UHGV virus genome: UHGV-1384413
Reading direction: 5' to 3' (one strand)
From: a virus
Length of the DNA stretch: 64,000 nucleotides
Numbering within the stretch: the stretch's first letter is position 1; every line of letters starts with the position of its first letter. This document shows positions 3,070 through 20,795 of this stretch, piece by piece. Below the pieces are notes generated by a model. That model was not told the origin of the DNA. It worked only from the letters and a program-made list of their open reading frames with translations, and searched no databases. The position numbers and the translations under genes were made by a program.

Positions 3070-3562
3070 GGTAACCCTCTATCCACGAAAAGTCAGTCTT
3101 CCATTCTGGAACTTTACTAAGCTCACGCCACTCTGCAAAGCAGTCTCGGTAATACGCCTCTGCCATACCCTTGGTGATCTTATTCACCTTAGCCAACTGA
3201 TTAACTGCCTGAGCATACTTTCCACGGATATTTGCTAACCCAGGATGCACCGATGTGTGACAATCTGGGCACAACGCTATCAGTCCGACAAGCCGGATCA
3301 CTCCCTCTTCGAAAGTGTAAAGTTCATGACACTCCACCGGATGTTTGCTGCCTTTACCACCACACACCTCACAAGTGTAGTTGGCTTCTCTGTAACACTT
3401 CTTACGGATCTTATCCCACTCACTCTTCTTCACAGCGTTTCTGAGGTTATTATACCAAGCTGTCTCCGGGATCAGTTGCACAATAAGCCTGCGTTCAGAC
3501 TTCATTAAACGTCCGTCTTCCATCAGCCCTCCAATTTGACCATACAATGACCATCTTTCCAC
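3059..3562 (-). CDS. zinc-finger protein, possibly HNH-like nuclease
   Basis: 167 aa; CEVCGG..HPVECHE..CPDCH Cys/His cluster; the HNH assignment is weak. Confidence 0.3.
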   Translation of the reverse strand: MERWSLYGQIGGLMEDGRLMKSERRLIVQLIPETAWYNNLRNAVKKSEWDKIRKKCYREANYTCEVCGGKGSKHPVECHELYTFEEGVIRLVGLIALCPDCHTSVHPGLANIRGKYAQAVNQLAKVNKITKGMAEAYYRDCFAEWRELSKVPEWKTDFSWIEGYLDG

Positions 3563-3741
3563 TTAGAAATCGATCTTTCGCCATTAGAGTAATAAACTTC
3601 AAGCTTAGCACGGTCATTCTTGATCTGTATGACCTTCGCTGTTTCTAGGGAACCATAACCGTAGTATACTGCAACAGTATCTCCCACATACACTACACTC
3701 CCGCGATAATCGTGAATATAATCAGTGCCTTCTAAAGCCAT
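3523..3741 (-). CDS. hypothetical protein
   Basis: 72-aa ORF. Confidence 0.3.
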   Translation of the reverse strand: MALEGTDYIHDYRGSVVYVGDTVAVYYGYGSLETAKVIQIKNDRAKLEVYYSNGERSISKWKDGHCMVKLEG

Positions 3742-3751
3742 ATTACCACCC

Positions 3752-3958
3752 TTATTCGAAGAAGTGAGTCCGAGGACAAGATCCAGCCTCGCCTTGTTTC
3801 ACAAGCTCGTAGAGCTCACCTTGGCTTGTTTCATAAAGGCAAATACGTTTACCATTGTCCCGATATACATCTACAAGATACGCTGTTTCACCTGCAAACA
3901 CGACACCACAGGCAAGGCATGCTGCCATGAACAAAATTGCCAACAGAAAATCTTTCAT
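3752..3958 (-). CDS. small membrane or secreted protein (holin candidate, speculative)
   Basis: 68 aa; N-terminal hydrophobic segment FLLAILFMAACLACGVVFAG; lies immediately downstream of the endolysin on the same strand. Confidence 0.35.
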   Translation of the reverse strand: MKDFLLAILFMAACLACGVVFAGETAYLVDVYRDNGKRICLYETSQGELYELVKQGEAGSCPRTHFFE

Positions 3959-4021
3959 GGTTAAACTCTCCTTAACATTTTACTGGGTAACAATACCACA
4001 TCCATGTGGTCATGTCAATGA

Positions 4022-4492
4022 TTAATCTAGAACAACACCGCCTGACTTTTTAAACACCTCGATCAACTTTTCGATCTTCTGTTCGTGCTGACCATACCCT
4101 GCACCGGGGAGGCTTGCCCATCGGGATCTGCAAAGATGGATGGCCTGATGAATACGACCTTCATCAATATCATCGAGCGCCTTGCACTCACGGATCAATT
4201 GTAGTGCGATCTTATCCTGACTGGCAGGGCCAAAATCTGGTAATCCTAACTGTTTCATATAGTGTTTAGCAAACTTCTCCAAAACTTGGTAGCGCCCCGC
4301 AGCAGAGGAGGTAAGTTTAGCATTTAGCTTAACGTACACACCTGGATGCTTACTGTAATCGCTAAACAGCTTGCCACCGACTATGACATCATAGCCCCGA
4401 TCCTTGGTAGGTTGTCTACCATTATCTGTACCTTCTGAATATGCGATCATGTCCAAGAAAGCTTTTCGTTGAACATTTTTATCAAGTCTCAT
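4022..4492 (-). CDS. endolysin, lambda R-like lytic transglycosylase
   Basis: 156 aa; N-terminal NVQRKAFLDMIAYSEGTDNGRQ and C-terminal WASLPGAGYGQHEQ closely resemble phage lambda R as recalled from memory. Confidence 0.8.
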   Translation of the reverse strand: MRLDKNVQRKAFLDMIAYSEGTDNGRQPTKDRGYDVIVGGKLFSDYSKHPGVYVKLNAKLTSSAAGRYQVLEKFAKHYMKQLGLPDFGPASQDKIALQLIRECKALDDIDEGRIHQAIHLCRSRWASLPGAGYGQHEQKIEKLIEVFKKSGGVVLD

Positions 4493-10429: not shown

Positions 10430-10780
10430 ATGAAAGATGGGGATAAGCTGCTATATCTTAAAGTCCCCCTTGAAATACTGTCTATGTCAAAAGTTTTGAA
10501 TGACACAACTGGGGAGGTTGTTGTTCTTGACTTATATGACAAGATCGTATACTGCTACCTGCACAACTGGTATAAGCTTGGAGAAAATTCACGCTTCACA
10601 CCCAGCACAAGGAAAATTGCAGCAGATGTTGGGATAAAGAAAACAAAAGCAGCAGCGTGCGTTAAAACTTTAGAATGTGCAGGAGTGGTTGAAATATCCA
10701 CACAAGGGAGAGGTAAAAGATGCACATTTTCCAAAGTTTTGCCACCAGAAGAAGTTATTCGAATGTCAACAACTGGTTAG
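10430..10780 (+). CDS. winged-helix DNA-binding protein (possible iteron-binding regulator or initiator)
   Basis: 116 aa; helix-turn-helix-like STRKIAADVGIKKTKAAACVKTLECAGVV; sits directly upstream of the palindromic repeat array. Confidence 0.4.
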   Translation: MKDGDKLLYLKVPLEILSMSKVLNDTTGEVVVLDLYDKIVYCYLHNWYKLGENSRFTPSTRKIAADVGIKKTKAAACVKTLECAGVVEISTQGRGKRCTFSKVLPPEEVIRMSTTG

Positions 10781-10855
10781 ACCAGTAAAAACTTAAACAT
10801 CTGTACTATAAGGATTTGTATGTTTTATGTTCACTCTGGAACAGAGGTTAGTAAC

Positions 10856-10936
10856 TGTCCGTGATACGGACACTACTGTCCGTCACGCGGACACATCTGC
10901 CCGTAGTACGGACACTAACTGTCCGTGATACGGACA
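10856..10936. repeat. array of four imperfect palindromic iterons, GTCCG-N5-CGGAC, on a 21-22 bp period
   Basis: Half-site starts at 10857, 10878, 10899 (gcccg variant) and 10921; units 1 and 4 are identical (taactgtccgtgatacggacac). Confidence 0.8.
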
Positions 10937-11075
10937 CATAAAGAATATAACTAAAATAACTAAATAATAAAAATAAAAGATCTAGCACTTATGGTACTAA
11001 AGTACATATACTTAACTTATGTAGAATATACTAGATCCTAAGTACCATGTTTTAAATTTATTACTTATTACTTAT
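10937..11075. other. AT-rich tract with short direct repeats (possible DNA unwinding element)
   Basis: ataactaaaataactaaataataaaaataaaag and ttattacttattacttatta; no ORF on either strand. Confidence 0.4.
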
Positions 11076-11300
11076 TATGGGTAGTGTCGGCCCTTCATTG
11101 GCACTCGCCTACGAGGGGCGAGATGCCGGGCCTCCGTAGTGCACACAATAACAGAAGTGCATACATGCAGGACTGTTAACATGTGTGGGAGCGAAGCGAT
11201 AGCGCAGGCCAAAGGCCGAGCACTAATGTGGATCACCGACGAAAGCTTGCCAGCGCCGGAAGGAGTCGGTTGAGAGCCTCCCGCGCGAGTTCTGATAAAG
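11076..11300. other. GC-rich ORF-free segment with multiple hairpins (candidate structured RNA or cis-element)
   Basis: Local inverted repeats ctcgcc..ggcgag and ggcc aaa ggcc; composition contrasts sharply with the flanking AT-rich DNA; no ORF of 60 aa or more. Confidence 0.3.
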
Positions 11301-11447
11301 TTTATGTGTGGAAACTGACAAGAAGGCTCCTAAATCGCTCCACAGCTATATAAACTATACCAAGTAAGGCAATCGCACCAGTTTGATAGAAAAGCTCGTT
11401 ACAAAGCGATACAGTGAGTTTTTCTATAACTTGAAGAGGAGGCTGCT

Positions 11448-12026
11448 ATGAGTTCACGCAAAGATGCCCGTGAAAAGATTGCAAAACGTTATCAGGATGA
11501 AGAACAGATGGAGAAAACTTTCAAGTGGAAGCCAGGTTTCCAGCGTAATCATTCTAACGCCCGTGATCGTAAGCATCCTGATAAGTGGCTAACACCGCCA
11601 AATGATGGCATGCAGGTTGGTGATGAGAAGGAGCTATCACCTGGAAAAGATGGCAACTACATTCGCACTAAGGACGCCAGTCCAAAGGATGACAGCTATC
11701 TTGTAGATAAGGTTCTTGATGGTATTGATGTAGATGTTGACACTGCACGAAACCTTTTTCTTGGTTGGTATCGTACAGGGTTTTTCGACATCAAGGCTAT
11801 TCGTCGTGTTTGTGATATTAAAAAGTCTGCATATGATGACGACTCGTTACATCGCACCCTGAGACAATATTCAGAAAGATATGGTCATCCGGTTATCACT
11901 CTTGACGATGTTAACGAAGTGATGTATCATGCAGAGGTTGTTGCAGGCAGATTTGGTGATGCATATCTTGATATCCTTTCTGCAAACGATGAGGTAATGT
12001 TGAATAAGATTTACTATGAACGTTGA
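11448..12026 (+). CDS. hypothetical protein
   Basis: 192 aa; RBS gaggagg upstream of the ATG. Confidence 0.45.
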   Translation: MSSRKDAREKIAKRYQDEEQMEKTFKWKPGFQRNHSNARDRKHPDKWLTPPNDGMQVGDEKELSPGKDGNYIRTKDASPKDDSYLVDKVLDGIDVDVDTARNLFLGWYRTGFFDIKAIRRVCDIKKSAYDDDSLHRTLRQYSERYGHPVITLDDVNEVMYHAEVVAGRFGDAYLDILSANDEVMLNKIYYER

Positions 12027-12225
12027 GGAGAGCTTAATGAACAATCCGGTAGCAAAGAACTGTAATAAGTTCAACAAGTCTGCAATTCACACCGACAGGA
12101 AAAAGAGCTGGTCACCGGACATTGACGAGGAGCTTGAGAATTACTTTGAAGATCTAGTCACCAATGCAGGTGAGGTTGCGATTAAAGAATACGCAGACAG
12201 GAAGGATAAGGCCGGAATCTGTTGA
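12016..12225 (+). CDS. hypothetical protein
   Basis: 69-aa ORF overlapping the preceding stop. Confidence 0.3.
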   Translation: MNVEESLMNNPVAKNCNKFNKSAIHTDRKKSWSPDIDEELENYFEDLVTNAGEVAIKEYADRKDKAGIC

Positions 12226-12272
12226 CAAAAATAATGTTACCTGATAAGATCTGCAATATGATGTGATACAAT
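12222..12272 (+). promoter_or_regulatory. promoter region (TTGACA-17-TAAGAT, plus downstream TGATACAAT extended -10)
   Basis: TTGACA 12222-12227 and TAAGAT 12245-12250; TGATACAAT 12264-12272 is identical to the motif at 30669. Confidence 0.4.
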
Positions 12273-12301
12273 TTTAACTTACGAGGTCTACAGGTAATGC
12301 T

Positions 12302-12544
12302 ATGTTTAAGGTTAAGCTCGTTTTCCGTTCCATGAATGAGGATTATTTAGAAGATGAAGGTGAATTTCGTGCACTAGATGATGCAATAGATTTTGCCAAC
12401 GACTTAGCTTGTATGAATACTGGTTATGGTTTATGTTGTTGGGATGGTGGTGTTCAGATTGGTGATAGCAAGATCTTCTACTTCTACCCTGAGCCCGATA
12501 ACAAACAAATTAAGTATGTTTTATTTATTTGTGCTTTACAATAA
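12302..12544 (+). CDS. hypothetical protein
   Basis: 80-aa ORF. Confidence 0.4.
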   Translation: MFKVKLVFRSMNEDYLEDEGEFRALDDAIDFANDLACMNTGYGLCCWDGGVQIGDSKIFYFYPEPDNKQIKYVLFICALQ

Positions 12545-12832
12545 GGTTGTTTTCGTGTATCATGATGAATATCCAATTTAAAGATGAGTTTGATGGCTTT
12601 ATCTCCGGATGCTTTGAAACAGGGTTCGGAGAAGACTGAGTTCCCCTTAGAGGGCTTGATAGTGCACCACACTTAAAATGGTAGGGGCAGCCAGCACATG
12701 ACGATGTGACCCCAGCCAACCTGTAATAAGGTCGAGCCAGAGCGCGGTAATGGGTATCTGGTAACCCACTTGTTGGGTCTTGCTGGTCCAGGACGCTGGG
12801 CAAGTCGCAGGGAATACCACCCTGCGGCGAAC
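12545..12832. other. GC-rich non-coding island (candidate structured RNA)
   Basis: No plus-strand ORF; all three minus frames stay open with Pro/Arg/Ser-rich low-complexity translations (track ORFs 12484-12954); perfect hairpin cgcaggg-aatacca-ccctgcg at 12806-12826. Confidence 0.35.
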
Positions 12833-12861
12833 TTGACAATCAGTATTTGCCGTGATAAAAT
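12833..12861 (+). promoter_or_regulatory. consensus sigma70 promoter with extended -10
   Basis: TTGACA 12833-12838, 17-bp spacer, TGaTAAAAT ending at 12861. Confidence 0.55.
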
Positions 12862-12889
12862 CCACCTATCACGTGATAATGGAGGAAAC

Positions 12890-13228
12890 ATGGCGGATAC
12901 AACTAAAAAGCGTCGCCGTAGAGGCAGACCTCTGAAAGAGGAGTCCAACGCCATTCAGCTAGAGAAGAACATTCTTGATATGAAGGAATCTTTTATAGCG
13001 ATGGTTCCAGAAGCTCACAAAGTTTTAAGAGAGCTGATGTTGGACCCGAAAACCAAACAAAATATTCGTCAAAGCATTGCAGAGTATGTTCTTGATAAGG
13101 CAGACCGAATGCAGGAAGAATATGATGAGATGTTTGGTGAAGAGGAAGAGGTGGTAGTAGAAGAGGCTGAAAAACCAGCACCTTTTATGCCATTTACCAC
13201 AGAAATACAGCCTGTTGGCAATAGTTAA
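12890..13228 (+). CDS. small DNA-binding-like protein with basic N-terminus and acidic C-terminus (terminase small subunit candidate, speculative)
   Basis: Start moved to ATG 12890 (RBS ggagga, promoter at 12833); MADTTKKRRRRGRPLK AT-hook-like N-terminus; track start 12770 lies in the GC island. Confidence 0.4.
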   Translation: MADTTKKRRRRGRPLKEESNAIQLEKNILDMKESFIAMVPEAHKVLRELMLDPKTKQNIRQSIAEYVLDKADRMQEEYDEMFGEEEEVVVEEAEKPAPFMPFTTEIQPVGNS

Positions 13229-13237
13229 AATATTTTC

Positions 13238-13266
13238 TTGACAAACTTTGCTTAACAGTGTAATAT
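13238..13266 (+). promoter_or_regulatory. sigma70-like promoter for the tRNA cluster
   Basis: TTGACA 13238-13243, 17 bp, TAATAT 13261-13266. Confidence 0.5.
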
Positions 13267-13324
13267 TGTAAACATGGTCTCCCACCTTTTCTGGCGGCTC
13301 AGGTGTAAAAGAAAGCCACCCAGT

Positions 13325-13399
13325 GCCCTGTTAGCTTAGTGGATAAAGCAGCGGCCTTCTAAGCCGTTGACACTGGTTCGAGTCCAGTACGGGGTGCCA
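13325..13399 (+). tRNA. tRNA-Arg (anticodon TCT)
   Basis: Manual cloverleaf: acceptor gccctgt/acggggt, D stem gctt/aagc, anticodon loop cuUCUaa, T loop ttcgagt, CCA encoded. Confidence 0.7.
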
Positions 13400-13403
13400 A
13401 ATT

Positions 13404-13490
13404 GGGGAGTTATCCCGTAGAGGTAGCGGTGTAGACTGTAAATCTATTGTCATTGCGACTCGGGTGGTTCGACTCCACCACTCCCCACCA
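13404..13490 (+). tRNA. tRNA-Tyr (anticodon GTA), long variable arm
   Basis: Acceptor ggggagt/actcccc, anticodon loop cuGUAaa, variable arm tgtcattgcgactcg, T loop ttcgact, CCA encoded; D stem imperfect. Confidence 0.65.
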
Positions 13491-13604
13491 AATTTACATT
13501 TTTAAATGCATAAATTATACAGATAATGACATTGATATTTATCGTCGTTTATACTAGTCACTAACTGCTCGAAAATCAGTGTCATTATCAGTGTAATTTA
13601 TAAA

Positions 13605-13695
13605 GGAGAGTAGGGAGCAATGGTGCTCAAGCGGTCTTGAAAACCGTCCCATTGAGGACGACTTGATGATGGTTCGATTCCATTACTCTCCGCCA
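13605..13695 (+). tRNA. tRNA-Ser (anticodon TGA), long variable arm
   Basis: Acceptor ggagagt/actctcc, anticodon stem gcggt/accgt with loop cuUGAaa, 20-nt variable arm, T loop ttcgatt, CCA encoded. Confidence 0.65.
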
Positions 13696-13793
13696 TATTG
13701 TTAACCTTGTAATTAAGCGAAAGCCGGAAGCAGAACCGGATTATCAAATGTTACAGTCGTCATCGCCGACTAGCAACATGGTTAACATTATTC

Positions 13794-13890
13794 GCTAGGT
13801 AAGCCCTTTGGCAAGGGCGAGGATTTTTAATCCTGAAAATAGACGAGGTAGTCGTTGAATACATAGGTGGTTCGATTCCATCACCTAGCA
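13794..13890 (+). tRNA. atypical tRNA-like gene (best fit anticodon TTT, Lys-like) with ~30-nt variable region
   Basis: Perfect 7-bp acceptor gctaggt/acctagc and canonical T arm ggtgg-ttcgatt-ccatc, but the anticodon arm is 4 bp plus a G.G pair around loop uuUUUaa, followed by a 30-nt stem-loop region; no CCA. Confidence 0.4.
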
Positions 13891-13896
13891 CCTTTT

Positions 13897-13972
13897 GCTG
13901 ATGTAGCACAATTGGCAGTGCAATTGATTTGTAATCAATAGGTTGCAGGTTCAAGTCCTGCCATCAGCACCA
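13897..13972 (+). tRNA. tRNA-Thr (anticodon TGT)
   Basis: Acceptor gctgatg/catcagc, anticodon stem attga/tcaat with loop uuUGUaa, T arm gcagg-ttcaagt-cctgc, CCA encoded. Confidence 0.7.
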
Positions 13973-13973
13973 T

Positions 13974-14048
13974 GGCCCTGTAGCTGGAAGGTTCAAGCAA
14001 GCGACTCATAATCGCCAGACGGTGGTTCAATTCCACCCAGGGCCACCA
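13974..14048 (+). tRNA. tRNA-Met or tRNA-Ile2 (anticodon CAT)
   Basis: Acceptor ggccctg/cagggcc, anticodon loop cuCAUaa, T arm ggtgg-ttcaatt-ccacc, CCA encoded. Confidence 0.65.
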
Positions 14049-14059
14049 AATAATAAATA

Positions 14060-14136
14060 CTCCGCGTAGCTCAGCTTGGTAGAGCGCCTGATTTGGGATC
14101 AGGAGGTCGAGTGTTCGAATCACTCCGTGGAGACCA
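14060..14136 (+). tRNA. tRNA-Pro (anticodon TGG)
   Basis: Acceptor ctccgcg/cgtggag, D arm gctcagcttggtagagc, anticodon stem cctga/tcagg with loop uuUGGga, CCA encoded. Confidence 0.7.
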
Positions 14137-14182
14137 CCTTTAGTTATACTTTAAATATATACACACAAAAGGAACCTTTAAA

Positions 14183-14452
14183 ATGTATACACTTAAAATT
14201 GTAGAACGTGTAAATCCAACCCATACTTTAGATCTTCGTGACGATTTCAACCCTCTTGCTGTAAATCTTCGAGAGTCGTATCATGAACTAAGCTGCGATG
14301 CAGTTGTGGTCTTCTTTGAAGACAACTCTGAAGGGGCAGTAGCTTGTGTTGTTGATAGCGAGCAGAAGTTTTATATTTACAGAGATGTGGATGCTTACTT
14401 GATGAATGAGAATGCGGTTACTGTCAGAATCATCCACCGAGTGCCTCGATAA
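14183..14452 (+). CDS. hypothetical protein
   Basis: 89-aa ORF with RBS aaaggaacc; followed by a hairpin terminator. Confidence 0.45.
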   Translation: MYTLKIVERVNPTHTLDLRDDFNPLAVNLRESYHELSCDAVVVFFEDNSEGAVACVVDSEQKFYIYRDVDAYLMNENAVTVRIIHRVPR

Positions 14453-15241: not shown

Positions 15242-15666
15242 TGTCTAAGATTTACGGACCGTGTTCTGAAAAGCAGAAGATGATCCTAGAGAACGATGCA
15301 GATATTTTGGTGATCGGAGGTGCAGCTGGGTCTGGCAAGTCGTTCCTCTTGCAGCTAATGCCGCTTAAAATTATTGATGACCCGCACAGCTCTGTGGTTA
15401 TGTTCCGAAGAACAACTCCCCAGTTGGAAGGTGAGGGTGGGCTATGGCCTAAAGCAGTAGCTATTTACAGTGATCTGCCTGAAAACATTAAACCAAAGTT
15501 CAGAGAGAAGGATCATAAGTTTATTTTTCCACGGTTTGATCCGAGCACTGGCAAGTGGGATAGGAGCAAAAAGGGGGCCGTTGTAAAATACTGCCACATG
15601 GAGTATGTCCAAGATAAGCTTAACCATCAAGGCCTTGAGTACACCATGGTTTGCTTCGATGAGGGT
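15241..15666 (+). CDS. terminase large subunit, ATPase N-terminal part (exon 1)
   Basis: Walker A GGAAGSGKS; ORF ends straight after Walker B MVCFDEG with TAA at 15667. Confidence 0.7.
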
Positions 15667-16550
15667 TAATTTGTAGCTCTCGTAAAACCTCCCTAATTGC
15701 GGGGAAATCTTTATTATTGACACCACCAACCTGTCATGGTAACATGATAGAGGCTTCGAAGAGAGATCGAAGGTATGGTAACAGTGTGTTAATTTAGATA
15801 ATCCGCAGCGAAGCATCCGAGAGGATGAACGTTCAACGACTAGTCGAAAGACGTAGAATCAAGCGATTCGAAACGGGAGGGTGAATGTGTAATACTAAAA
15901 AAATGTATGGATTGCCAAAGAGTTCTGCCTCTTGATGATTTCTTTTTATCATCTAAGAGCAAGGATGGATACTCAGGTACATGCAAGGAATGCTATATGT
16001 ACTACAGGAAGAATGGATCTCGTAGAAACAAAAATATGGTTAAGAGAGATGATGCAGCATCTTTTGTTCAAGACTTGCTGAAGAAAGGTGAGCTTTTTGA
16101 ATGTAAATCTTGTCATGAAAGTATGCTTGCTGATAGTTTTTACACAAAGCGTGACTATGGTAAAGTGTATCTGGTTACGAACAGGTGTAAGATGTGTGAA
16201 AAGTTTTATCAGATTGAGAAGAAATTTCACATAACAAAAGATGAATACTATCGTTTACTCTCAGATCAAGATCATAAGTGTGCCATTTGTAGAATATCTC
16301 TTGATGAGTATAGGACGCAAGGGTACAGAGATTTCTTTTGTGTTGATCATGACCATAAAACTGGTGCTGTAAGAGGGTTGCTTTGTGATAAATGCAACAG
16401 AGCTTTAGGGTTCTTCCAAGAGGATGAGGAAACCATTCTTAGAGCAGCAGAGTATTTGCACATTCATAAGATATAGTCTGGTCTGCATGGAGACATGCAG
16501 CTGCCTGAAAATGGCGGGGCAAGACTAGCGACCTTGCCCGAACATAAACG
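15667..16550 (+). mobile_element. probable group I intron (boundaries approximate) carrying an HNH homing endonuclease ORF
   Basis: Interrupts the terminase reading frame right after Walker B; ORF-free flanks 15667-15906 and 16477-16550 contain hairpins such as gggcaag/cttgccc; stop at the 5' junction, candidate omega-G at 16550. Confidence 0.5.
15907..16476 (+). CDS. HNH homing endonuclease
   Basis: 189 aa; several CxxC pairs and canonical FCVDHDHKTGAVRGLLCDKCNRALG HNH core. Confidence 0.75.
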   Translation: MDCQRVLPLDDFFLSSKSKDGYSGTCKECYMYYRKNGSRRNKNMVKRDDAASFVQDLLKKGELFECKSCHESMLADSFYTKRDYGKVYLVTNRCKMCEKFYQIEKKFHITKDEYYRLLSDQDHKCAICRISLDEYRTQGYRDFFCVDHDHKTGAVRGLLCDKCNRALGFFQEDEETILRAAEYLHIHKI

Positions 16551-19818: not shown

Positions 19819-20795
19819 TGTCTGAAAAAACGATTACTATTAAAGAGAAGGGGATTGCCCTGTGCCATAAGGCGCAAGGCTATAGCGCTAACAACAGACC
19901 TGTATCTCTTTTGATGAAGAGTGATCTTCAGCCTGAGCAGTTGACAGACGATATTGTTAAGGCACTTCGCCAAGTTACTGTGGAGCTGAGTTTTGAAGAA
20001 TACCTGCGTCGTTTCTTCGATATGTGGTATGATGATGCCAAAGCACTTGCACACATGCTTGGTTTTGAGATTGAAGAGGAAGCTTGGGCTAAAGAGCATC
20101 CTGATTGGGAATGGGCACAAGCTGACGCAGAGTCTTGCATTGCATGGCTGGAAGAGCGTTGTGATAACGTGACCATTCATAAAGCTGCAAAAGAAGGCAA
20201 GCAGCTTAGTGTGGTAGATCAGTACAGTCTGTTAAAAACACAACAGATTTTTGAACAAGTAACCGCTGATCTCTTCGATAAAGAAGGGAACCTGATCAAG
20301 GCGGTACAGGAACCTACTGAGGTGGATAAAACTACCGAGGTGGATGATGTTGCAAAATCCGCAAATACCGAGGAGAATCCGGTGGACGTAACCAAAACTA
20401 AAGAGTATCTGGATCTGCTGAAGCAAGTAGAAGAGCTGAAAGCAACCCAGAGTAAAGCTGAAGAAATCATCAAGGCCCAGGTTGAAGTTGAAAAAGCTAA
20501 AATGCTGGCTAAAGCTCAAGCTTTAAGCTTTGTTGGTGAAGAAGATCATGCAACCCTGGTTGACTTCATGCTGGAAAAAGCTAACGAACCTATCGTAGCT
20601 ATGCTGGAGAAAGCTCAAGCCAAAATTAAAGAGCTGGAAGCAGAGGTGCATAAAACCAAAGAAGAGTTTGCCACCACTGAACATGGTAATGATGGCGAAC
20701 CTGTTGTGGATGATATTGCAAAATCCGCAGAAGAAATTCTTGCTGAAAACGTTGCAAAAGCACTTGCTCGTGCACGTGCAGAATCTACCAAATAA
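19818..20795 (+). CDS. scaffolding protein
   Basis: 325 aa, acidic, helical/coiled-coil character (AKALARARAESTK); located between portal and capsid genes. Confidence 0.5.
   Translation: MSEKTITIKEKGIALCHKAQGYSANNRPVSLLMKSDLQPEQLTDDIVKALRQVTVELSFEEYLRRFFDMWYDDAKALAHMLGFEIEEEAWAKEHPDWEWAQADAESCIAWLEERCDNVTIHKAAKEGKQLSVVDQYSLLKTQQIFEQVTADLFDKEGNLIKAVQEPTEVDKTTEVDDVAKSANTEENPVDVTKTKEYLDLLKQVEELKATQSKAEEIIKAQVEVEKAKMLAKAQALSFVGEEDHATLVDFMLEKANEPIVAMLEKAQAKIKELEAEVHKTKEEFATTEHGNDGEPVVDDIAKSAEEILAENVAKALARARAESTK

Follow-up and report, generated by a model that had tools for sequence, protein, structure and literature searches.

The 64,000-nucleotide (nt) stretch of viral DNA analysed here (UHGV virus genome UHGV-1384413, called the window throughout) belongs to a Vequintavirus, that is, an rV5/FV3-like myophage of Escherichia coli, and positions 12640 to 12832 of its plus strand very probably encode a functional structured RNA of a family that is widespread among phages. 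So far as can be determined from Rfam, ARAGORN and literature searches, this family is undescribed. A first-pass annotation, made from the letters of the window, had already regarded the interval from 12545 to 12832 as a GC-rich, non-coding island that would contain a structured RNA rather than a gene, and this proposal has gained substance from three sides: a coding role could be excluded, compensatory base changes keep the helices of the proposed fold, and a sister lineage of the window's phage (group A2) has a promoter directly in front of the element. The GC richness itself holds for 12640-12832 (0.565 against 0.439 for the whole window) and does not extend to the preceding 95 nt or so (12545-12639), which are AT-rich and lie outside the island.

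The conserved core and the fold around it

Members of the family share a core of the form A-ACCU[6-nt loop]AGGU-C-(G/A)A-GC[C-N-N-N-G-N]GC-GGUAA (loops in square brackets), which recurs almost unchanged (12719-12750 in the window) and is flanked by helices whose sequence differs among lineages while their pairing is kept. The comparison for compensatory base changes that had been suggested as a check thus speaks for a structured RNA, several helices being kept intact both between and within lineages (coordinates in Table 1). The first hairpin of the core, Pc, has the same stem, ACCU/AGGU, in all 49 distinct cores collected, closing loops that read GUAAUA, GUAAAA, GUAGCA, AUAAUA, GUGAAA, GUAACA, GGAAUA or GUGAUA; since this stem never varies, and the search patterns moreover fixed part of it, it offers no covariation test. 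The second hairpin, P3', has only two base pairs, and the inner one, usually C:G, is U:A in five distinct sequences that belong to three lineages and is nowhere mismatched (43 GC..GC and 5 GU..AC, a tally that includes three cores with a 5-nt loop re-parsed by hand). The hypervariable positions of the core, N1-N3 and N4, which differ even between near-identical genomes, are the loop nucleotides of P3', and the GGUAA after this stem is single-stranded in the fold.

On the 5' side of the core, an outer stem, PaO, is common to all lineages, and its sequence differs from one lineage to the next. Within lineages this stem covaries, as in AAAGG/CCUUU, AAAGC/GCUUU and AAAGA/UCUUU, in GGGAA/UUCCC and GGGAG/CUCCC, in UGAAUG/CAUUCA and UGAGUG/CACUCA, and in GCAA/UUGC and GCGU/ACGC. 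Between the lineage of the window (group A) and A2, the GGGG/CCCC of PaO becomes GGAAC/GUUCC, with two double changes, and the inner hairpin PaI becomes CUACG/CGUAG, with four of its five pairs double-changed and the GACG loop kept, which amounts to six double changes for the Pa domain. PaI is present in most lineages and absent in groups C and D.

A further helix, PK, takes its 5' strand from the 5' internal loop of PaO, where a C-A-(A)-G motif usually comes immediately before it, and its 3' strand from a few nucleotides after GGUAA-NGGG, and because it crosses the outer stem PaO, the fold is a pseudoknot. RNAalifold found PK unprompted in the T4-like group B2, where CCG:CGG, CAC:GUG and CGC:GCG occupy the same columns; in the aligned T4-like columns it is 100% paired, with double changes in two of the three pairs. 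Other lineages have GAGG:CCUC, CUG:CAG, CUGG:CCAG, CGGA:UCCG, CGGUU:AGCCG, AACCA:UGGUU, GGGUA:UUACC or CUCCGG:CCGGAG at this place. For the full proposed structure, 99% of the cells of the T4-like alignment A4 are paired, against 24-50% with slid partners; four pairs show double changes, and none of 500 shuffles reaches the covariation score. The plus strand folds better than the minus strand (z-scores of -2.2 and -1.2), and the G-U pairs in the covarying helices fit the plus strand only. As regards the alignments themselves, MAFFT puts the outer stems of different lineages in different columns and misplaces one gap between A and A2.

Two other pairings were tried and set aside. A longer helix proposed by RNAalifold (P3, GAGCC(C):GGGUU(Y)) shows one-sided changes only and clashes both with the covarying P3' and with the variable second position after GGUAAU, and it is kept just as an alternative; the pairing of CCAGA (12737-41) with UCUGG (12757-61) has its 5' strand in hypervariable loop positions, whose changes are uncompensated.

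Other helices are restricted to particular lineages. H1 and H2 (12644-73) and P5 and P6 (12779-12826) are confined to rV5-like phages. The former two, which are absent from T4-like and other members, are nearly invariant between A and A2, so that no covariation test is possible, and at the place of P5 lineage A2 has GCUGG[GGACGGA]CCAGC in a different register, which precludes a column-wise test; rV5, for its part, breaks the innermost P5 pair (C-A). The perfect 7-bp hairpin to which the first-pass annotation had drawn attention does exist at exactly the positions given (P6), but it is a lineage-specific appendage, missing even from A2 and the nearest relatives, and not the conserved heart of the RNA. 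Nor is it an intrinsic terminator, because no U tract follows it (it is followed by GCGAACUUGACAA), and a terminator scan of 10700-14300 did not report it. Within the region of two mutually exclusive hairpins (12751-12778), the natural variant L091 has lost 12769-12778 and keeps the first alternative (12751-55:12764-68), and A2 has a CCC[AUAGA]GGG hairpin where the window has the second (12764-68:12774-78). Upstream of the element, the place of the leader hairpin at 12603-12631 is taken by a promoter in A2.

Table 1. Parts of the RNA element and the transcription signals around it (positions in the window; MFE, minimum free energy; loops in square brackets)
Feature	Position	Strand	Remarks
Structured RNA element, whole	12640..12832	+	193 nt, GC 0.565; boundaries from the alignment with A2 (promoters on both sides)
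Leader hairpin CUCCGGAU...GUUCGGAG	12603..12631	+	MFE fold; lineage-specific; overlaps the end of the small open reading frame 12562-12639
5' domain	12644..12673	+	rV5-like phages only; H1 CCCU[UAG]AGGG 12644-54, H2 AGUG[CACCA]CACU 12661-73
Pa domain	12684..12713	+	PaO GGGG 12684-87 : CCCC 12710-13; 5' internal loop CAGCCAG
PaI, inner hairpin within Pa	12695-12708	+	CACAU[GACG]AUGUG
PK 5' strand GCCAG	12690..12694	+	in the Pa internal loop; pairs with CUGGU 12758-12762
PK 3' strand CUGGU	12758..12762	+	variant L064 extends the pairing to GCCAGC:GCUGGU
Pc hairpin	12719..12732	+	ACCU[GUAAUA]AGGU; stem same in every member, loop free
Rest of the conserved core	12733..12751	+	C-GA, P3', then GGUAAU 12746-51
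P3', 2-bp stem	G12736-C12737 : G12744-C12745	+	closes the hexaloop CAGAGC
Ambiguous region, two mutually exclusive hairpins	12751..12778	+	UGGGU 12751-55:ACCCA 12764-68 or ACCCA 12764-68:UGGGU 12774-78
P5 and P5a	12779..12804	+	CUUGC-UGGU-CCAG[GACG]CUGG-GCAAG; MFE fold; rV5-like phages only
P6, 7-bp hairpin	12806..12826	+	CGCAGGG[AAUACCA]CCCUGCG; absent from A2; only variation U to C in the loop
Sigma-70 promoter P75	12222..12250	+	TTGACA-17-TAAGAT; 10/12 match; annotated as P75 in rV5 (DQ832317)
Weak promoter-like site	12535..12563	+	TTTACA-17-TATCAT; 10/12 match; about 75 nt upstream of the element; unannotated in rV5
Promoter P74 for ORF74 (12890-13228)	12833..12861	+	11/12 match plus TG extension; annotated as P74 in rV5; abuts the 3' end of the RNA

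Coding capacity of the interval

The minus strand, previously held to be open in all three frames across 12545-12832, is so over 168 nt (12674-12841); over the rest, stops fall in one frame at 12562, 12580, 12601 and 12649 and in another at 12675. The open run is nonetheless the longest of its kind in the window, ahead of one of 160 nt at 20627-20786, and in dinucleotide shuffles of the island the longest run averages 69 nt and attains the observed length with a probability of about 0.001. This openness would favour a protein-coding role, for instance of the minus frame at 12525-12839 (104 amino acids, aa), as would the open reading frames (ORFs) listed or annotated over the element in T2, G4500 and T4; on the plus strand, the candidates are small peptides, namely the N-terminal extension of T4 vs.8 and an ORF of 33 aa that the annotation of some T4-like genomes places over the element. 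Against such a role stand the low complexity of the minus-strand translations (as had been remarked in the first pass), substitutions that track base pairing and not codon position, and indels of 1, 2 and 7 nt inside the island between group A genomes that are 95-99% identical, which rule out an ORF on either strand. The three plus-strand frames through the conserved core were moreover followed in 18 representatives: a start codon is missing from the first in lineages A, A2, B3, D, E and E2 and for part of B2 and C, the second invariably runs into a stop within the Pc loop, and the third lacks a conserved start. No ORF through the core, and no start codon for one, is common to the lineages.

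In T4 (NC_000866 64790-64938; L030 3291-3439, minus strand), the annotated vs.8 (219 aa, start 64912) has its first ATG inside the RNA element. In close relatives of T4 the same frame runs for 33 codons to a stop, and vs.8 has its start further downstream, at an ATG with its own Shine-Dalgarno (SD) sequence. The T4 counterpart of this ATG, at 64792, gives 179 aa; the start of T4 vs.8 is probably mis-set and its annotation 40 codons too long. Probably spurious, too, are the small coding sequences (CDSs) for "hypothetical proteins" that have been called over the element in T2, G4500 and other phages.

The absence of a plus-strand ORF, also claimed for the interval, applies only to ORFs above about 36 aa, as a small one (12529/12562-12639) is present and annotated in some records; the rV5 record has no annotation over the GC-rich island, and some other records have a small CDS over its AT-rich 5' flank. 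This tiny ORF (12562-12639, plus strand), which ends just before the RNA element, reads MMNIQFKDEFDGFISGCFETGFGED in the window, and its counterpart upstream of the element in the sister lineage (L039, L070 and L079) comprises only MKDEFDGF, with a good SD sequence. The KDEFDGF common to both suggests a real micro-peptide or the remnant of one.

Distribution among phages

The 551 bases around the feature match 119 phage records at 95-99.6% identity, all of them Vequintavirus, and a sensitive blastn search with the island, which was complemented by pattern scans of viral, metagenomic and genome collections, recovers the element from all 119, with a query coverage of 80% or more. About 700 T4-like phages, whose hosts are Escherichia, Shigella, Klebsiella, Yersinia, Salmonella and Citrobacter, are picked up by the same search through a match of 35-49 nt, a 45-nt core being 88-95% identical in them. 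The match lies in a non-coding gap of about 150 nt between an internal-head-protein gene or denV and vs.8 and is oriented like the flanking genes; T4 itself has its copy between denV and vs.8 at about 64819-64938 of NC_000866 (minus strand). Pattern scans, which required GTCGAGCC...GCGGTAA or ACCT...AGGTC...CGGTAA, added the more distant rV5-like phages of group A2, and the core is also found in the N4-like Klebsiella phage KpCHEMY26 (Schitoviridae), in contigs of about 46 kb with a ParB-like gene that match 44-48-kb phages of Klebsiella, Shigella and Salmonella, in a jumbo viral contig of 359,777 bp and in about ten further lineages known from metagenomes only. With an nhmmer profile of the core, true members have E-values (E) below 1e-11 and are set apart from chance matches; the window has a single copy (12716-12758, E 2.8e-15), and no second one was found in it with this profile. 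Among 5,426 E. coli genomes there is no match, and the single "plasmid" match is an rV5-like phage genome; the pattern scan of 185,579 species genomes gave chance matches in GC-rich coding sequence only.

The hexaloop variants CAAGU, CAAGC and UGAGC are shared, in identical form, by rV5-like and T4-like phages, and L007 is a hybrid, which suggests that the module passes between co-infecting phages.

Some members have more than one copy of the core. In certain T4-like phages (group B3) a second, degenerate one lies about 110 nt downstream of the first, such degenerate copies being found at 9139-9179 of L045, 481-521 of L095 and 1643-1679 of L007 as well as in L043, and contig L114 has two good copies (837-868 and 923-953), 86 nt apart. 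Klebsiella-type phages of group C (L061, L067, L085 and L103, and KpCHEMY26 in its gap at 3368-4372) have the element as one of several consecutive structured modules beside tRNA genes. These modules share near-identical basal stems, GUGCUCUUxCCGUUGUG ... CACAACA..GGUAAGAGCAUUG, the other modules having a different interior, and to judge from this arrangement they look like a cassette system for small RNAs.

As to the database labels, eighteen "Campylobacter phage" records (MG0656xx) and the PLSDB E. coli "plasmid" CP057073.1 (137,565 bp) match this region of an E. coli rV5-like phage at 96-98.5% identity; the former are probably mislabelled, and the latter is probably a phage genome.

Transcription signals and genomic context

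In rV5, the counterpart of the interval lies between ORF75 (12302-12544 in the window) and the promoter P74 with ORF74, and a tRNA cluster (13325-14136), in which ARAGORN finds seven tRNA genes, comes just downstream. The consensus promoter that had been seen after the island is indeed there, and it is P74, which matches the sigma-70 consensus at 11 of 12 positions with its -35 box TTGACA at 12833-38 and its -10 box TAAAAT at 12856-61. In the lineage of the window, the source of transcripts through ORF75 into the element is most likely P75, and the terminator scan found no terminator-like site between the two. Transcription may also begin at the weak site at 12535-12563, whose role is uncertain and whose -10 hexamer is not conserved in L087. 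In group A2, a consensus TTGACA-17-TATACT promoter ends about 6 nt before the element and the next promoter follows directly after it, an arrangement by which the element would be an independent gene of about 175 nt. L040 and L127 have a strong intrinsic terminator after the element, and L138 has a promoter there, as the window does.

In about 11 of the 17 lineages the element stands within 1 kb of tRNA genes on the same strand (in the window, 490 nt upstream of a tRNA-Arg gene), and it is always oriented like the genes and tRNA genes beside it. In L076, L098, L115, L118 and L119 it is flanked by tRNA genes on both sides, and in L108 it comes 52 nt after one, the closest spacings being about 21 nt (L098) and about 52 nt (L108); the T4-like phages depart from this, their tRNA cluster being about 6 kb away. 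What follows the element is a promoter in the window, A2 and L138, a tRNA gene in C, D, F, L108 and L118, a terminator in L040 and L127, and vs.8 in the T4-like phages. No Pfam or PHROG family recurs among the neighbouring protein genes of different lineages, and these genes offer no candidate partner for a ribonucleoprotein, so that the RNA looks like a self-contained module.

Possible mode of action

The closest known things in kind are rnaC and rnaD, the stable RNAs of T4 known as species 1 and 2, which are non-coding, 119-139 nt long and located in or beside the tRNA cluster on the same strand. The likeness lies in the position of the element by tRNA genes, as seen in about 11 of the 17 lineages and in the window itself. 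Unlike them, however, the element shows no similarity to rnaC or rnaD in sequence (homology was rejected, with Smith-Waterman scores of 12-14 against a shuffle mean of about 15), it is in T4 a third, separate locus about 6 kb away, and it does not end, as rnaC does, in a tRNA-like T arm and acceptor end. To our knowledge, no function has been found since their discovery for small RNAs of the rnaC/rnaD type beside tRNA clusters, to which the element would add a third and much more widespread RNA.

According to the explanation that we favour, the RNA would be transcribed early by the host sigma-70 RNA polymerase from P75, and perhaps also from the weak site at 12535-63, and, since there is no terminator, would either be excised from a longer transcript or extend by read-through towards ORF74 and the tRNA genes. 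Its compact fold would free or stabilise it, and it would accumulate as a stable RNA in the manner of rnaC and rnaD. It would then act in trans by presenting its near-invariant core to some factor that enterobacterial hosts have in common and that would recognise the RNA there. An enzyme that binds tRNA is a plausible candidate, and so is a defence nuclease directed at tRNA; in either case the RNA would keep the factor occupied or divert it. A tRNA-related target is proposed because of the habitual place of the element among phage tRNA genes, and phage tRNA clusters are of interest as counter-measures to host defences that deplete or cut tRNAs. Taken as a whole, this combination of a structured RNA with a trans-acting mechanism is the best explanation and a reasonably probable one; the specific role of a decoy is put forward tentatively and is, by itself, rather doubtful.

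Several points weigh against this explanation. The only argument for a decoy is the location of the element; five lineages show no tRNA gene in the DNA examined, and the contexts are heterogeneous (upstream of a promoter, in the 5' leader of vs.8, before a terminator or between tRNA genes). The window has no terminator or recognisable processing site at the 3' end of the element, and we infer the ends, the stability and the abundance of the transcript from the DNA. With respect to the fold, a 4-5-bp helix of the PaO type is expected by chance in single sequences, as shuffles show, and because PaO is thus not significant per sequence, only column-wise covariation has been relied on. The complementarity of the PK strands across groups is moderately unlikely by chance (per-type null 0.1-0.95, rough product about 2e-4), firm column-wise support for PK comes from within the T4-like group B2 only, and, whereas the complement of the 5' strand is present in every other lineage tested, the natural recombinant L007 is without it. 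Alternative folds remain, furthermore, for the helices 3' of the core (12751-12804). Finally, the scans fixed part of the core by design, so that members with a changed core would have been missed and the invariance of the core is partly a matter of ascertainment.

The interest of the element lies in its breadth, in its presence in T4 and in its direct testability. Its defined fold and near-invariant core make clean mutants possible, and its presence in the best-studied model phage makes genetics, RNA-seq and pull-downs feasible at once. Annotation would also be corrected by it, namely the "hypothetical proteins" over the element in hundreds of genome records and the length of T4 vs.8.

Alternative explanations and comparison with known RNAs

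A broader reading, which leaves the task of the RNA open and which we consider a real possibility short of an even chance, is that of a new class of functional RNA: pseudoknotted, cloverleaf-like, about 110-190 nt long, exchanged by unrelated virulent phages of Enterobacteriaceae and kept next to tRNA genes. Would its task be that of a decoy against a tRNA-directed host defence or enzyme, of a new ribozyme or of a ligand sensor? In any of these cases T4 would carry an overlooked non-coding RNA gene between denV and vs.8, partly under a mis-set start. The Rfam scan proposed as a check in the first pass came out empty: against Rfam 15 (4227 models) there is no match in 12545-12832 at gathering thresholds and none over 10800-13400 at E<=10, and seven T4-like loci that carry the element give none at E<=1. 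Neither ARAGORN nor RF00005 (E<=10) makes a tRNA or tmRNA call at the element. Full-text literature, searched also with the core sequence, contains no description of it, a search that does not cover the 10,006 unnamed candidates of one screen (PMC10690425).

Some resemblance to a tRNA is nonetheless present, since, starting from the PK helix, a closing helix and three arms follow in order, and this among tRNA genes. The arms, however, are of the wrong sizes for a tRNA, one stem having 4 bp and another 2 bp, each with a loop of 6 nt. Signatures of the T and D loops are missing, as is a CCA end, and PaO is an extra, crossing helix. GOLLD and ROOL are ornate structured RNAs of phages and prophages, 500-800 nt long and often near tRNA genes. 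They have Rfam models, whereas the element matches none, is four to six times smaller and has no motif in common with them. Two further likenesses were rejected: the core aligns with CGUGCCAGCAGCCGCGGUAAU of the 530-loop of 16S rRNA, but 11 of 300 shuffles reach the score for the window and other lineages are not significant, and GGA hairpins of the CsrA type are present in T4-like phages (GCCAAGGAAUGGC) and not general.

Unlikely, though the most probable of the narrower rival readings, is a role in RNA processing. The element would then be a new self-cleaving ribozyme, or else a structured site of RNase recognition or insulation by which polycistronic transcripts that contain tRNAs are cut or stabilised. 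Its position inside or beside tRNA clusters, with spacers of 20-50 nt in L098 and L108, the tandem copies in L114 and in the B3 T4-like phages and the repeated basal stems around neighbouring modules would fit this, and so would its resemblance to ribozymes of the hepatitis delta virus (HDV)-like type. The theta subgroup of these (PMC10879173) consists of minimal ribozymes of gut phages that process phage tRNAs, cleave within 5 nt of the 3' end of a tRNA and depend on a catalytic C as the first nucleotide of J4/2. Like theta and other HDV-like ribozymes, the element is phage-encoded, tRNA-associated and pseudoknotted, and its strands come in the order stem 1, stem 2, hairpin, stem 1', hairpin or hairpins, stem 2'. 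However, the joiner that would hold the catalytic C, between the core and the PK 3' strand, begins with A or U or is absent (GGGU-AAAUA-CAG, GGGUUU-ACAUA-CGG, GGGUAU-CUGG, G(G/A)GUU-CCG), and groups C and D lack the inner hairpin between the PK 5' strand and the 3' strand of the outer stem, that is, the P3/L3 that is obligatory in HDV-like ribozymes. The element, of 110-190 nt, also lies at least 20 nt from any tRNA, and never within 5 nt of a tRNA 3' end (about 21 nt at the closest, 490 nt in the window), and its conserved nucleotides sit where the P4 of HDV-like ribozymes varies. There is, besides, no match to an Rfam ribozyme, and the T4-like element lies far from the tRNA cluster.

Decidedly unlikely is a cis-acting leader (riboswitch or attenuator), in which the core would bind a small ligand or a protein and so determine whether the downstream sequence (in the window ORF74 with the tRNA genes, in T4-like phages vs.8) is read through or translated. 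Pseudoknotted riboswitch aptamers do have a similar build, with a compact pseudoknot, a near-invariant junction and variable, covarying peripheral helices; the T4-like element ends about 25 nt before the vs.8 start codon, L040 and L127 have the classic attenuation layout of element, intrinsic terminator and ORF with an SD sequence, and, as GGGU (12752-55) has two alternative partners, a switch is conceivable. Unlike riboswitches, however, the element is not the 5' leader of a coherent set of genes: the neighbours share no family, no consistent class of downstream gene or expression platform is found, and it is often a promoter or a tRNA gene, and not an ORF, that follows. A strong promoter separates the element from the next gene in the window, in A2 and in L138, several lineages have it between tRNA genes with no ORF downstream, and no Rfam riboswitch matches even at E<=10.

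It is very improbable that the element works at the level of DNA, whether as a conserved target for recombination or homing or as a site to which a protein binds, and spreads in this form between co-infecting phages, or that its composition is accidental; in either case the RNA fold would be incidental. A 40-nt core nearly identical in unrelated phage families with common hosts would be in keeping with it, as would the exchange to which the shared loop variants and the hybrid L007 point, yet compensatory changes occur in at least four helices, the G-U pairs would be A-C on the other strand, the orientation is constant relative to the neighbouring genes and tRNA genes, and dedicated promoters and terminators flank the element in some lineages. 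A protein product, whether of the open minus frame or of a small plus-strand peptide, is scarcely credible in view of the frames and indels described above.

Other features of the surrounding region

On the plus strand at 11080-11330, the window has a second GC-rich non-coding island (GC up to 0.58), preceded by a promoter-like site, TTTAAA-16-TATTAT, at 11051-78. Its fold has a long closing helix, UAGUGUCGGCC...GGCCGAGCACUA, with a z-score of -3.2 and none of 200 shuffles as good, and it is confined to the 119 Vequintavirus records (88-98% identity). Against Rfam it gives only a weak, sub-threshold match to rli43 at its first bases (20.7 bits, gathering threshold 100), and rV5 has the doubtful ORF78 (56 aa) annotated inside it. 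This island may be another small RNA gene.

Directly downstream of a GntR-like regulator gene (rV5 ORF79, 10430-10780), the plus strand at 10856-10935 contains three to four copies, with variants, of the palindrome TGTCCGTGATACGGACA, which resemble an operator array. At 15657-16500 (plus strand), inside the large terminase gene, Rfam reports a group I intron with 50.9 bits against a threshold of 50, and the rV5 annotation of this gene is a join of three pieces. Within the tRNA cluster, finally, ARAGORN calls at 13794-13892 (plus strand) a tRNA of 99 nt with the four-base anticodon AUCC, to which the Rfam tRNA model gives 35.5 bits; it is annotated as tRNA-Lys (97 nt) in one genome record and unannotated in rV5, and it may contain an intron or be otherwise unusual.

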